38,269 bases of DNA, from NCBI GenBank assembly GCA_038740615.1, contig JAVYLQ010000004.1, positions 1 through 38,269 of the forward strand, given 5' to 3'. A model generated the notes under the pieces. The model saw only the letters and a list, made by a program, of their open reading frames with translations. It was not told the origin of the DNA and did no database searches. This document shows positions 1 to 33,977 of the stretch, piece by piece (positions within the stretch are counted from its first letter, which is position 1; each line of letters begins with the position of its first letter). The DNA comes from Candidatus Anstonellales archaeon (GTDB taxonomy: Archaea; Micrarchaeota; Micrarchaeia; Anstonellales; J096). Position numbers and translations under genes: made by a program.

Positions 1-1785
1 ATCAATTACTTCTGATAATCTATGTAAGATCCATCTATCCACTTTTCTGAGCTTTGGGATGTTAGAGATTGGTTGTAGTTTAGATATGATGTATTTTGAA
101 GCATTCCAGTATTTTATTAGAAATGCTTTCGCATATTTTATATCTTCGTATGAAAAAGGTCTATCTTTAGCTAAAGCTCCACTCATCGCTGCCCATTGTC
201 TCAGCGCATCCACAGGGTACTCTTTGAGTAATTCATCAGGAGAGATTACATTACCCAAACTCTTACTCATCTTTCTCCCATCTGGGGCAAGTACATTTCC
301 ATTCAGCAGAATCTCTTTCCAAGGGATATTACCAGTTATTCTCCAGACCCTATAGATCGTATAGAGCGCCCAGGTTCTAACTATTTCCACCCCCTGGATT
401 CTTATATAATTAGGGAATGTTCTATTGAAAAATTCTCGATCTTCATAATATCTAGAGATTATCAATGGAGTTATACTAGAATCTACCCAGACATCTAATA
501 CTTTGGTCTCTGGTTTCATAGCAGCCCCACATTTACTACATATCTTCTCATCGGCTTTTTCAGGATAGAAAGGTAGTTTATCCGCAGGTTCTATATGATC
601 GCATTTCTCACAGACATAAAATGGTATAGGAGTTCCAAAAACTCGATCTCTACTTATTATCCAATCCCAATCTAGATTGTTGAGCCAATCTATGTAGTGA
701 TATATTCCAAAGCTCGGTGTCCATCTGATCTGTTTGGCAATATCGATGAGTTTATCTTTGTGTTTTTTCAGAGATGCAAACCATTCATATGAATATAATA
801 ATTCTACTGGATTTTTACACCTATCATGTACCCTTACAGTCTTCCTATAGGATTTTTCAGATACAATATATCCTTGAGATCTGAGATCTGCAACTATCCT
901 CGATCTGGCTTCATCTATACTCATACCATCATATTTGCTATTCTTTAACTTACCTTCTTTATCAATCCCTTCTATCACAGGTAGATTATGTCTCTTCTGC
1001 CATACAAGATCCTGGTAATCACCGTAAGTACAAATCATCACTGCCCCCGTACCAAAATCTTTGATCACATCATGATCTGCTATCACAGGAACCTCTCTAT
1101 TATATAGGGGAATCCTCACATTCTTTCCAATCATATCTTTATATCTCTGATCATCTGGATGTACTGCTACGGCAACACATGCATGTAACAGTTCAGGTCT
1201 AGTAGTAGATATTACAATGTTATCAAATCTGATATCATATAAAATAGAATCAATTTCCTTATCCTCCAGTTCTGCTTTTGCAATTGCAGACTTACAGTGA
1301 GGACACCATAGCACAGGATGATTATCCCTGTAAATATCCCCCAATTTCCACATATCTATTACAGACTTCTGAACTTTCTCATGATATTCAGGCAACATTG
1401 TAATGTATTGGTTATTCCAATCTATCATATACCCCATCCTTCTCATCTGATCTCTCATCTTCGATATCATCTCATGGCTCCATTCTACACATTTTGCCCT
1501 AAATTCCTCTCTACTCAAGTTTTTACCGTACTTACTCTCTATCTTCATTTCAGTAGGAAATCCCTGGGCGTCCCATCCCTGGGGATAGAATACTTGATAT
1601 CCTCTGAGTGTTTTGTATCTGGCTATGAAATCTATATATGAATAGCTAAGTATATGGCCCATGTGAAGTGTACCAGATGTGAATGGAGGTGGGGTATCTA
1701 TCACCAATAATTCTCTGTTCAAATCATATTCACGAGGTTTATTCTCCCATATACTCTGCCACTTCTTCTCAATATCTTCAAACAT
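1..1785 (-). CDS. valS: Valyl-tRNA synthetase (runs off the window start; missing from the ORF track)
   Basis: Manual minus-strand translation from ATG at 1785: MFEDIEKKWQSIWE..IDTPPPFTSGTLHMGH (HIGH motif)..GWDAQGFPTE..; DWDWIISRDRVFGTPIP; KMSKSLGN near 255-275. Confidence 0.95.
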   Translation of the reverse strand, partial: MFEDIEKKWQSIWENKPREYDLNRELLVIDTPPPFTSGTLHMGHILSYSYIDFIARYKTLRGYQVFYPQGWDAQGFPTEMKIESKYGKNLSREEFRAKCVEWSHEMISKMRDQMRRMGYMIDWNNQYITMLPEYHEKVQKSVIDMWKLGDIYRDNHPVLWCPHCKSAIAKAELEDKEIDSILYDIRFDNIVISTTRPELLHACVAVAVHPDDQRYKDMIGKNVRIPLYNREVPVIADHDVIKDFGTGAVMICTYGDYQDLVWQKRHNLPVIEGIDKEGKLKNSKYDGMSIDEARSRIVADLRSQGYIVSEKSYRKTVRVHDRCKNPVELLYSYEWFASLKKHKDKLIDIAKQIRWTPSFGIYHYIDWLNNLDWDWIISRDRVFGTPIPFYVCEKCDHIEPADKLPFYPEKADEKICSKCGAAMKPETKVLDVWVDSSITPLIISRYYEDREFFNRTFPNYIRIQGVEIVRTWALYTIYRVWRITGNIPWKEILLNGNVLAPDGRKMSKSLGNVISPDELLKEYPVDALRQWAAMSGALAKDRPFSYEDIKYAKAFLIKYWNASKYIISKLQPISNIPKLRKVDRWILHRLSEVID

Positions 1786-1804
1786 GATTTTTCTTAGGAG
1801 AATA

Positions 1805-1814
1805 TTTTTAAAAA
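1805..1814. promoter_or_regulatory. Palindromic TATA box (TTTTTAAAAA), probably shared by valS (-) and the C/D sRNA (+)
   Basis: Centred between the valS ATG (1785) and box C (1835), about 20 nt from each. Confidence 0.6.
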
Positions 1815-1834
1815 GAATCAATATTATCAAGTTC

Positions 1835-1883
1835 GTGATGATACACAGGTTTGCTGATCAGTGATGACAAACTGGAGCGCTGA
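1835..1883 (+). ncRNA. Archaeal box C/D 2'-O-methylation guide sRNA (dual guide)
   Basis: Box C GTGATGA 1835-1841; 12-nt guide TACACAGGTTTG; D' CTGA 1854-1857; C' GTGATGA 1861-1867; 12-nt guide CAAACTGGAGCG; D CTGA 1880-1883. Perfect boxes, canonical spacing, intergenic, TATA upstream. Confidence 0.92.
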
Positions 1884-1916
1884 ATATTTTTAAATATAGA
1901 TGAAAATATTCAAAAG

Positions 1917-2234
1917 ATGGCAAAATGTGAAAAATGTAAAGTGGAGTATGAAAATTTATATACTTGTCCATACTGTGGGAAGCAGTTCTGTTTCAGACAT
2001 ATAACTCCTACTATAGATAAATTCACATATGGGCATAAATGCGAAGAATATATTAAACAGATGCGGGCAATGGAGCGGGAAAAACCATTATCTAAAATCC
2101 CTAGAATACCTTCTTCAGAACCCAGTAAAGAGGAACTTAGTTTAGAAATAATTAGTTTATTTAAATACACTATTATAGGTATAATAGGGATAGTATTCTT
2201 ACTAATCCTATTGCGGATATTAAGATTAATTTAA
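1917..2234 (+). CDS. AN1-like zinc-finger protein with C-terminal membrane anchor
   Basis: CxxC..CPYCGKQFCFRH..HKC pattern; hydrophobic C-terminal helix IIGIIGIVFLLILL. Confidence 0.75.
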   Translation: MAKCEKCKVEYENLYTCPYCGKQFCFRHITPTIDKFTYGHKCEEYIKQMRAMEREKPLSKIPRIPSSEPSKEELSLEIISLFKYTIIGIIGIVFLLILLRILRLI

Positions 2235-2258
2235 AAATTGGGATGTTATAATTTTAAC

Positions 2259-4214
2259 ATGATAAATTCAAATGTACTAGATTTTTATATTAATAGGAGA
2301 TTAAATCTAATCGAGATCCACTCTAAAGGAGAGGTAGAATTGGATTATGGGGATATTCTATCTTTTGATCCGGGTTTAGCCGATGCACTCCAATCAGATC
2401 CAGATGGATTTTTACAGCTCCTTAGATCTAGATTGTATGAAAGATTTATCAATCTGAATCTTGAGGCTAAGGATATAGATATAAAACTAACTGGGATTAC
2501 TCCTCACGTTATGATCAAAGATATAGGTAGTAAACATGAGAGAAAAGCAATATCCTTCTACGGATTAGTAGTTAGGAGATCTGAGATAGAACCTGTAGTT
2601 GAGATGAATAAATATCACTGTATGTCGTGCAATAGAGAATTCATAGTATCATCTCAAGGAAAATCTACTAGCAAATGTGTGTTTTGTAATAGTAAGAAAA
2701 TAGAACTGGTGGATAGTATAAAGAGGGATGTGCAATACTTAGATGTCCAAGAACTGATTGAACGAACTGAACCAGGAGTACCCGCACCTAAAGTAAAATG
2801 CATTCTAACAGGTAGTTTTATCAACACCTTGCTTCCAGGAGAGATCGTAGAGCTTACAGGAATTCTAAGATTAGTACAATCTCAGAACAAGAGATCTACA
2901 AATCTATCTAAACTCATTGAAATAAGAGGTATTAAGAAAATGCAGATTGATTTCAATTCAATTACTCTAACAGATAGAGATAAGGATGAAATAATGAGAT
3001 TTAGCAAACGTCCCGATGCTCTTGAGAGATTTGCCAATCTAGTATTCCCAGATATATATGGATATGATAATATCAAAAAAGCTATAATATTGCAGCTAGT
3101 AGGAGCGAATAAGAAGAGAACTAAAGCTGGAACAAGATTGAGATCTAACATACACATATTGCTCATAGGGGACCCTGGAATTGCTAAATCCAGAATGCTA
3201 CAACAGGTTTCTAGAATCTCACCCAAAGCAATATACGTTAGCGGTAAATCTGCCTCTGGTGTAGGATTAACAGCTACTGTGGAAAAAGATGATTATGTGG
3301 GTTGGACCCTAAAGGCAGGAGCAGTAGTGTTAGCATCTGGAGGGATAGTCGCTATAGATGAATTTGACAAACTCGATGATGATGAGAAAAGTGCTCTTCA
3401 TGAGGTAATGGAATCTGGAACAGTATCAATAGCCAAGGCTGGAATCGTTGCTACTCTAATAGCAGATACTACAATTCTAGCCGCTGCTAATCCAAAGTAT
3501 GGAAGATTCAGTATAAGGAAGAGGATAATAGATCAATTCAACATTCCACCAAGTCTTCTGAGTAGATTCGATCTTATATTTCCAATAATAGATGATGTGG
3601 ATGTGGCAAAAGATGAGAGATTGGCTGAGGCAATATTGAACCTGCATAGGAATGTGGGATCTACAGAATACGACCCCAGCTTCCTAAGGAAATACATCAG
3701 TTATGCGAGAAAACTCAACCCCAAATTGACCGAAGAGGCTAGCACAGCAATAAAGAATTACTATGTGGAAATGAGAAAGACTGGAGCTAGTAGTGGAAAT
3801 GTAGCGATAACACCTAGGTATCTAGAAGGGTTGGTTAGATTGGCAGAAGCCCATGCTAAGTTTCGATTGAGTGATGCTGTTGAATTAGAAGATGCTAATC
3901 AGGCAATATCTCTTATGAAAGAGATGATAAATTCTGTACTCAAAGATCCTGAAACTGGAGAGGTGAGTGTAGATATCTTGAGCACAGGGATGACTTCTAG
4001 TAGAAAGAGTAAAATGGATGCGGTTTTAGGGATTATCCAAGAATTGGTGGGGAGGGAAGGACATGCATCTAAGAAGAAAATACGGGAAATGGCGAAGGAG
4101 ATAAATATAGAGGAACGAGAATTGGAGGAGATAATTAGAAATCTCATCAATAATGGGGATATTTACGAATCTAGAGGAGGGGAAGATGGTAGTTATTCTC
4201 TTACTAATATCTAA
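2259..4214 (+). CDS. mcm: MCM replicative helicase
   Basis: Zn finger CMSC/CVFC, Walker A GDPGIAKS, Walker B IDEFDK, AANP, arginine finger SRFD; no intein; ATG 2259 preferred over TTG 2238 from TATA spacing. Confidence 0.97.
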   Translation: MINSNVLDFYINRRLNLIEIHSKGEVELDYGDILSFDPGLADALQSDPDGFLQLLRSRLYERFINLNLEAKDIDIKLTGITPHVMIKDIGSKHERKAISFYGLVVRRSEIEPVVEMNKYHCMSCNREFIVSSQGKSTSKCVFCNSKKIELVDSIKRDVQYLDVQELIERTEPGVPAPKVKCILTGSFINTLLPGEIVELTGILRLVQSQNKRSTNLSKLIEIRGIKKMQIDFNSITLTDRDKDEIMRFSKRPDALERFANLVFPDIYGYDNIKKAIILQLVGANKKRTKAGTRLRSNIHILLIGDPGIAKSRMLQQVSRISPKAIYVSGKSASGVGLTATVEKDDYVGWTLKAGAVVLASGGIVAIDEFDKLDDDEKSALHEVMESGTVSIAKAGIVATLIADTTILAAANPKYGRFSIRKRIIDQFNIPPSLLSRFDLIFPIIDDVDVAKDERLAEAILNLHRNVGSTEYDPSFLRKYISYARKLNPKLTEEASTAIKNYYVEMRKTGASSGNVAITPRYLEGLVRLAEAHAKFRLSDAVELEDANQAISLMKEMINSVLKDPETGEVSVDILSTGMTSSRKSKMDAVLGIIQELVGREGHASKKKIREMAKEINIEERELEEIIRNLINNGDIYESRGGEDGSYSLTNI

Positions 4215-33882: not shown

Positions 33883-33884
33883 AG

Positions 33885-33977
33885 AGCCGGGTGTGGGAGT
33901 CGAACCCACCTACACCGGTTTCTACTTTGTAACTGGAGCATCTGCAGCCGGTTGCGTAGCCGCTCCGCCAACCCGGC
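33885..33977 (-). tRNA. tRNA-Cys(GCA) with a 22-nt intron at 37/38 (intron 33920-33941)
   Basis: Minus strand: GCCGGGT/ACCCGGC acceptor, U73, anticodon stem ACCGG/CCGGT, loop CT-GCA-G^A, T-arm GTGGG-TTCGACT-CCCAC; splice helix CUGC:GUAG with 3-nt AA^A bulge (relaxed BHB). Confidence 0.94.

Follow-up and report, generated by a model that had tools for sequence, protein, structure and literature searches.

A predicted stand-alone box C/D guide RNA for pre-tRNA-Trp and a putative docking copy of its target site in the tRNA-Cys intron of an Anstonellales archaeon

Introduction

The persistence of short tRNA introns is a long-standing open question, with the tRNA-Trp intron of archaea, in which the guide RNA for that tRNA is encoded, as the textbook exception. 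The same question is raised by contig JAVYLQ010000004.1 of a Candidatus Anstonellales archaeon (assembly GCA_038740615.1), of which we analyzed the whole stretch from position 1 to 38,269 (hereafter, the window). A box C/D small RNA (sRNA) gene of 49 nt, located at positions 1835..1883 on the forward strand, carries two guides, and both of them pair with the unspliced transcript of a tRNA-Cys gene of the same window. Why would a methylation guide fit an intron that is going to be discarded? Here we put forward that this sRNA is one guide with two intron-containing precursor substrates, pre-tRNA-Trp and pre-tRNA-Cys, and that the tRNA-Cys intron serves as a docking site for methylation of C39. 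On the evidence of pairing, chance expectation and comparison among relatives, we consider this reading likely.

A dual-guide sRNA complementary to two precursor tRNAs

The sRNA consists of a C box GTGATGA (1835..1841), the 12-nt D' guide TACACAGGTTTG (1842..1853, with G1849 as the fifth base upstream of D'), a D' box CTGA (1854..1857), a 3-nt spacer TCA between 1857 and 1861, a C' box GTGATGA (1861..1867), the 12-nt D guide CAAACTGGAGCG (1868..1879, with G1875 as the fifth base upstream of D), and a D box CTGA (1880..1883), all on the forward strand. Terminal C and D boxes, internal D' and C' boxes, a short spacer and two guides of exactly 12 nt are the features expected of archaeal box C/D sRNAs. 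By this anatomy the element is a stand-alone, canonical archaeal dual-guide C/D sRNA, as had been proposed in a preliminary description made from the letters of the window.

A scan of the stable RNAs of the genome revealed that both guides also fit pre-tRNA-Trp, at C34 and C39, which overturned the earlier idea of a guide dedicated to tRNA-Cys. The pre-tRNA-Trp(CCA) gene is found at G000:C5:13193-13280 (G000 is the genome under study, other G numbers are relatives, and C4, which is the window, and C5 are contigs of G000) and has a 15-nt intron without C/D boxes. On this precursor the D guide forms 9 contiguous Watson-Crick pairs with G31-G37 and intron nt 1-2, selecting the wobble base C34 (pattern x|||||||||x| against GGCTCCAGTTAG, where the fifth position is C34). 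The D' guide forms 8 contiguous pairs with intron nt 14-15 and A38-U43, selecting C39 (pattern x||||||||xx: against GAAACCTGTTAG, where the fifth position is C39). In the complementarities to stable RNAs, the fifth guide position forms a Watson-Crick pair at Trp C34, Trp C39 and Cys C39.

This arrangement resembles that of Haloferax volcanii and Pyrococcus (sR50), in which a guide encoded by the tRNA-Trp intron selects C34 and nt 39 and acts in trans on the precursor (PMC7994747, PMC11408192, PMC4090602; here and below, papers are cited from the available parts of their text). Dual antisense elements for C34 and nt 39 of one pre-tRNA-Trp are common to both, and the C34 guide likewise lies across the 5' junction, but the nesting in the intron is absent: the present guide is a separate 49-nt gene on C4, whereas tRNA-Trp is on C5. 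In addition, nt 39 is here C and not U, and a second tRNA (Cys) carries matching sites. A Trp intron of 15 nt is too short to house a guide. It is very probable that the sRNA is a real C/D guide for pre-tRNA-Trp, and in sequence terms it is the classical archaeal guide for 2'-O-methylated C34 (Cm34) and for nt 39 (N39) of tRNA-Trp in stand-alone form.

The tRNA-Cys(GCA) gene (33884..33977, minus strand; ARAGORN intron mode) contains a 22-nt intron at the canonical 37/38 placement (33920..33941, minus strand; ARAGORN intron mode and fold). Sequence matching located the D-guide docking site UGCUCCAGUU, which contains GCUCCAGUUA, at intron nt 2-11 (33931..33940, minus strand), and the D' guide site at the last two intron nt plus A38-A46 (33911..33921, minus strand; C39 is 33918 and G41 is 33916). 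The matches first described were reproduced: the D' guide (1842-1852) equals the forward strand at 33911-33921 in 10/11 positions, the D guide (1870-1878) equals 33931-33939 in 9/9, and G1879 faces U33940 in a G-U pair. The pairing of the two guides with the tRNA-Cys precursor is in the correct order, with nine bases (33922-33930) between the matched stretches, and it is conserved and co-varies in relatives (see below). With the intron at 37/38, the fifth-nucleotide rule again yields C39 (33918), which pairs with G1849, and intron nt 6 of G000 (33936), which pairs with G1875. The single D' mismatch is that of guide A1847 against C33916 of the forward strand, i.e., G41 of the tRNA; in tRNA-Trp the same guide base pairs with U41.

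As the D-guide site lies within the tRNA-Cys intron, dual binding requires the precursor. To this extent the previously suggested recognition of unspliced tRNA-Cys was upheld, but the D' site alone cannot tell spliced from unspliced tRNA in G000: in the spliced form, the UU of the D' guide would face A36 and G37 instead of two A's of the intron. In the minimum free energy (MFE) fold of pre-tRNA-Cys, intron nt 1-16 are unpaired and form, together with A36 and G37, an 18-nt loop above a CUGC/GUAG helix and a 3-nt AAA bulge, and the dock is predicted to be accessible in this loop. In its default mode, ARAGORN reported 33884-33977 (minus strand) as tRNA-Leu(CAG), and only the intron mode gave tRNA-Cys(GCA); automatic annotation of such genomes may mislabel intron-bearing tRNA-Cys as tRNA-Leu.

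The sequence GCTCCAGTTA in the tRNA-Cys intron of G000 exactly reproduces G31-G37 of tRNA-Trp and the first three nt of the Trp intron. The anticodon loop of tRNA-Cys, GGCTGCAG, differs from that of tRNA-Trp at nt 34 alone, and this likeness suggests that the relation could have begun with an affinity that was weak and unproductive.

Chance expectation was evaluated with 5000 guide shuffles for single matches, on a target set of 16S, 23S and 32 pre-tRNAs, and with 20000 for dual matches. A two-site match in the correct order, in which both 10-bp cores score at least 9 with a gap of 0-30 nt, was obtained in 1/20000 shuffles, and dual sites on two different RNAs at once (thresholds 9 and 8) were equally rare, at 1/20000. 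Genome-wide, G000 has 6 occurrences of the 9-mer target of the D guide where chance predicts 4.1; the number of occurrences is therefore uninformative, and what counts is the placement in two anticodon regions. Targets in ribosomal RNA (rRNA) were rejected, the best rRNA cores of either guide scoring at most 8 or being mismatched at the methylation position, as is typical of shuffled guides.

Could the guide nevertheless be dedicated to pre-tRNA-Cys, methylating C39 and intron nt 6 and serving no other substrate? Core scores in G000 lean in this direction, as the D' guide scores 9 on Cys and 8 on Trp, with the D guide scoring 9 on both. However, the D guide puts the wobble C34 of Trp at the methylation position with its contiguous pairs crossing the exon-intron junction, A1847 fits U41 of Trp and not G41 of Cys, and homologous sRNAs are present in genera g5 and g28, where tRNA-Cys has neither the intron nor the complementarity. 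This explanation is contradicted by the comparative data and we regard it as highly improbable.

Conservation and co-variation of the tRNA-Cys intron dock

The sRNA, tRNA-Trp and tRNA-Cys were drawn from relatives, which resulted in a comparison set of 26 genomes with both the guide and the tRNA genes. A copy of the Trp anticodon loop (GCTCCAG plus 2-3 nt) was present in the tRNA-Cys intron of 19/26 of them. It occurs in most of family f1, in three genera of family f9 (g30, g39, and g40), and, with a mismatch or a G-U pair, in family f3. These dock-bearing introns are otherwise unrelated, range from 15 to 154 nt, and hold the copy at differing offsets, the shared block being of about 10 nt. 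We scored the 10-bp core against the D guide of each genome, including sites from A36/G37 onward. Among the genomes with the sRNA and an intron-bearing tRNA-Cys, an intron site scored at least 7 in 19/21 and at least 8 in 17/21, and in 13/21 between 0 and 2 of 2000 shuffled introns scored as high as the observed site. A search of 401 genomes sampled across the phylum detected the exact dock pattern in 15, all of them in this order (0/265 outside), with 0 control matches.

The co-variation between guide and targets that the preliminary description had suggested looking for was found in these relatives, with the guide, the start of the Trp intron and the Cys intron copy changing together. Specifically, positions 9-10 of the D guide track the first two nt of the Trp intron and the two nt after the Cys intron copy, and within genus g1 the states common to guide complement, Trp and Cys are TT (G000, G001, G003), AT (G002), and TC (G004). 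In family f3 and in G012, the 5' part of the guide fits the Cys copy better than Trp. Similarly, positions 8-11 of the D' guide pair with tRNA-Cys 42-45 in 19/19 dock-bearing genomes versus 1/7 dockless ones (G009, G013, G011, G019, G120, G126, G127), and the states GUGU, GCGU, and GCAU of tRNA-Cys 42-45 are each matched by the D' guide. Genus g6 contains an internal switch of state of the D' guide and tRNA-Cys, where tRNA-Trp 44-45 mismatches. The D' guide misfits tRNA-Trp 44-45, tracking tRNA-Cys 44-45 instead, in G000-G004, G006, G007, G014, G018, and G019. Positions 4-6 of the D' duplex on tRNA-Cys (A38, C39, C40) are Watson-Crick pairs in 19/19 dock-bearing genomes. The intron end of both tRNA-Trp and tRNA-Cys is altered in G019 (GAT|ACC), and the guide has changed with it (GGTATG); the unspliced precursor is therefore the form recognized. 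Taken as a whole, these patterns make it probable that the pairing with pre-tRNA-Cys is under selection.

An alternative is that the sRNA acts on tRNA-Trp alone and that the resemblance of tRNA-Cys is a by-product of common origin, intron exchange or the similarity of the GCA and CCA arms. Indeed, the sRNA family tracks tRNA-Trp across the order even where tRNA-Cys is intronless (genera g5 and g28, family f6), and the anticodon loop of tRNA-Cys is one base off that of Trp. Relatives that have the sRNA and lack the complementarity to tRNA-Cys, a possibility raised in the preliminary description, do exist (g5, g28); dock-bearing genomes have the D' pairing in 19/19 cases. Common origin fits poorly with a block of merely about 10 nt at variable positions in introns of 15-154 nt that are otherwise unrelated, and this block changes in step with an unlinked antisense guide. 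Furthermore, D' positions 10-11 follow Cys 44-45 and not Trp in the ten genomes just mentioned, and the presence of a dock is associated with D'-Cys pairing (19/19 vs 1/7). An action on tRNA-Trp alone thus appears very unlikely to us.

Several observations nevertheless weigh against a guide shared by the two tRNAs. In G000, the D' core on Trp scores 8/10 only, and the single-guide matches are non-significant, the best match being equaled by 766/5000 and 701/5000 shuffles. A better target could be missing from the assembly, which is 83% complete and has 32 tRNA genes. The CTGGAG core was demanded by the pattern used to survey the sRNA family (see below), so complementarity to Trp is partly built into that survey and only the flanks are free evidence. 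The significance given by the permutation and Fisher tests is overstated, as neither takes relatedness into account (by genus, the figures are 8/8 vs 1/4); the switches within genera are a stronger argument than these figures. As for individual lineages, the dock is absent and the D' guide divergent in G011, the D' guide of G019 pairs with tRNA-Cys without a clean dock, and the guide of family f3 mismatches nt 41 of both tRNAs. Finally, the A-G mismatch at D' position 7, two pairs from C39, is invariant in 19/19 dock-bearing genomes and could block catalysis on tRNA-Cys.

If it did, both guides might bind pre-tRNA-Cys without methylating it, either as a chaperone or timing device (keeping the stem open, delaying splicing, ordering modifications) or by way of an intron sponge that titrates the tRNA-Trp ribonucleoprotein (RNP). 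The mismatch at nt 41 was kept throughout the dock-bearing genomes even though one change in the tRNA or the guide would remove it, and the docks of G006, G012, and G020 have G-U pairs at and beside the fifth position, which points to conservation of pairing and not of a methylatable site. Chaperone roles have also been proposed for double-guide rRNA sRNAs, for which paired binding is proposed to stabilize imperfect duplexes and some of whose sites are bound and unmethylated (PMC4644070). On the other hand, A38, C39, and C40 are Watson-Crick paired in all 19 genomes, as methylation requires, and published target-prediction rules tolerate one mismatch away from the methylated base (PMC4644070). 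Since U41 of Trp constrains the guide base that faces nt 41, the mismatch would persist without any function having to be assumed. We therefore consider binding without catalysis unlikely, and lean slightly toward C39 of tRNA-Cys being methylated.

Distribution and variants of the sRNA family

A total of 176 species genomes of the order were searched with the D-guide module pattern TGATGA-NNNN-CTGGAG-NN-CTGA, using the reversed pattern as control. The module of C' box, D guide and D box was found in 52/176 genomes and a strict pattern of the whole sRNA in 18/176, each with 0 control matches. In genus g30 (L087-L094) the D' and C' boxes of the sRNA are set apart by a GC-rich insertion of about 106 nt and the C box reads ATGAAGA, and in genus g5 (L117, L118) the D' box is degenerate, CTTA or CCGA; we read both as large structural variants within one guide family. 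In G058 (L103), the sRNA gene follows the tRNA-Trp gene on the same strand after about 45 nt, its D' guide having lost the AGGTTT core, and the two genes may form a dicistronic unit. G011 (L015, L111) has kept the D guide for Trp C34 and has a dockless tRNA-Cys intron, while its D' guide GAGCTCGGTTTT fits Trp and Cys poorly; this second guide may be retargeted or decaying.

The tRNA genes are variable as well. Besides the intron in the anticodon loop, a second insertion appears to interrupt the T-loop of tRNA-Trp (GGTTCAAA...) in L042 of G011, L045 of G012, L046 of G008, and L057 of G032. Long tRNA-Cys introns with repeated units of about 70 nt were observed in genus g4 (154 nt in G012, L078/L084; 414 nt in G015, L077, including a run of N), and these repeats may represent a small mobile or expanding element. 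The 154-nt intron of G012 retains the D-guide site near its 3' end.

Class membership and genomic context

The proteins of a C/D RNP are encoded by G000, in which fibrillarin (PF01269, 245 bits), Nop5 (PF01798, 105 bits), and an L7Ae-family protein (PF01248, 88 bits) were all detected above the cut-offs. A strict pattern identified 7 C/D candidates in this genome, including the present sRNA, and most guides of the other six match rRNA best. One of them (G000:C1:18917-18966, forward strand) has a D' guide that selects nt 39 of tRNA-Ser(UGA) and tRNA-Ser(CGA) with a core of 9/10 and also matches within pre-tRNA-Met. Position 39 may thus be a recurrent guide target in this organism.

The sRNA had zero matches to curated Rfam families at gathering thresholds, the best sub-threshold match being sR3 (RF01133, 29.5 bits against a threshold of 41 bits). 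It shares box layout and length with sR3, sR9, sR2, and snoPyro_CD, but scores under every gathering threshold of the archaeal C/D families and so belongs to none of them. The D guide of the sR3 consensus, compared with window positions 1831-1885, likewise ends in UGGAGC and its D' guide contains GGGUCUG; the likeness of sR3 to this tRNA-Trp guide may extend beyond the boxes. The predicted fold of the sRNA was no more structured than chance (z = 0.53), as expected of an RNA built on kink-turns.

The sRNA gene is flanked on one side by the N-terminal part of a class I aminoacyl-tRNA synthetase gene that runs off the window (1-1788, minus strand). On the other side lies an open reading frame (ORF) for a 105-aa zinc-finger protein (1917-2231, forward strand), with weak AN1/UBP-type matches below the cut-off, followed by an MCM helicase gene (2238-4211, forward strand). 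An A/T-rich, TATA-like stretch TTTTTAAAAA (1805..1814, forward strand), centered about 25 nt upstream of the C box, is a possible promoter, to be read against the AT-rich background of the genome. The assembly comprises 542 kb in 31 contigs with 35% G+C, and its 32 tRNA genes were found with ARAGORN. DNA of the window was present in 18 listed sequencing runs, all of them DNA and nearly all labeled as hot-spring metagenomes.

Discussion

In the mechanism that we propose, the 49-nt RNA together with L7Ae, Nop5, and fibrillarin would be a trans-acting methylation guide. Its primary and ancestral substrate would be pre-tRNA-Trp, receiving Cm34 via the D guide and Cm39 via the D' guide, while pre-tRNA-Cys would be a secondary substrate that evolved to use the tRNA-Trp guide. 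On the latter, the D guide would dock on the intron copy and the D' guide would pair with A38-A46, bringing C39 to the methylation position and leaving G41 as a constant mismatch. As an anchor, the dock would plausibly compensate for the imperfect D' duplex; mutual stabilization of two adjacent guide-target duplexes has been argued for in published target prediction (PMC4644070). The D' guide would in turn be a compromise, with position 7 serving U41 of Trp and positions 10-11 serving Cys 44-45. On either precursor, the D guide takes the 5' site and the D' guide the 3' site, with 2-18 nt between them, so that the linker would presumably need to cross the C'/D' end of the RNP only. Pairing of the D' guide would open the anticodon stem needed by the splicing endonuclease, and splicing removes the dock; modification would therefore have to precede splicing. 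Methylation of intron nt 6, in contrast, is probably an incidental and discarded by-product: the position, named as a site in the preliminary description, is unlikely to be what the pairing is for, since G006, G012, and G020 have a U there facing the guide G. The anatomy, the complementarities with their conservation and co-variation, and the protein genes are read directly from the sequences, while transcription of the sRNA, assembly of the RNP, methylation at C34 and C39, and anchoring by the intron are inferred. That the tRNA-Cys intron is kept as a mimic of the Trp anticodon loop which recruits the Trp guide, with Cm39 being intron-dependent and formed before splicing, is a proposal that we find evenly balanced.

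Guides for tRNAs have been described in other archaea. In Pyrococcus, stand-alone C/D sRNAs are directed at the wobble position 34 of tRNA-Leu and tRNA-Met (PMC7994747), with which the present sRNA has in common its separate encoding and its aim at position 34. tRNA-directed sRNAs usually employ one guide and leave the other empty (PMC7994747, on Lui et al. 2018), whereas here both guides are predicted to be used, on each of two substrates. Like the double-guide rRNA sRNAs, this sRNA has two guides on neighboring sites of one substrate; unlike them, its substrate is a pre-tRNA, and one of the sites lies in a discarded intron and is copied from the target in another tRNA. In eukaryotes, intron-dependent modifications include that of tRNA-Ile by Pus1 and m5C34 of tRNA-Leu(CAA) by Trm4 (PMC4090602, PMC11408192). 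In those cases too the intron is needed for modification of the mature part and modification takes place before splicing, as proposed here. However, Pus1 and Trm4 are proteins that read the extended anticodon helix, whereas the tRNA-Cys intron would provide a base-pairing dock for a borrowed RNA guide.

As to precedents, the available text of Randau 2012 (PMC3491384), on Nanoarchaeum, mentions only a tRNA-Met intron candidate, and that of Lui 2018 (PMC6009581), on Pyrobaculum, contains nothing on pre-tRNA or tRNA-Cys targets. Full-text literature searches, together with the parts at hand of PMC7994747, PMC6009581, and PMC3491384, yielded no description of a guide-docking copy in the tRNA-Cys intron. 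The guide itself is of a known kind, whereas an intron-borne target mimic that co-evolves with the guide looks new.

The logic of the intron-encoded tRNA-Trp guide is here inverted, as the guide is free-standing and the intron of another tRNA supplies a docking copy of the cognate site. Three elements change in concert across genera: the sequence of the intron, a guide RNA unlinked to it, and the gene of a second tRNA. If the anchoring role is true, it would give a function to a tRNA intron of roughly 15-50 nt, show in nature how a single guide can serve two substrates with a compromise sequence, and offer a rule by which intron-dependent modifications could be predicted from genome sequences alone. 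If mimicry is the correct reading, a tRNA would borrow the guide RNP of another tRNA by means of a mimic in its disposable intron, and a short archaeal tRNA intron would have a concrete function that can be read from its sequence. The guide system for Cm34 and N39 of tRNA-Trp is also extended to small-genome (about 0.5-2 Mb) archaea from hot-spring metagenomes.

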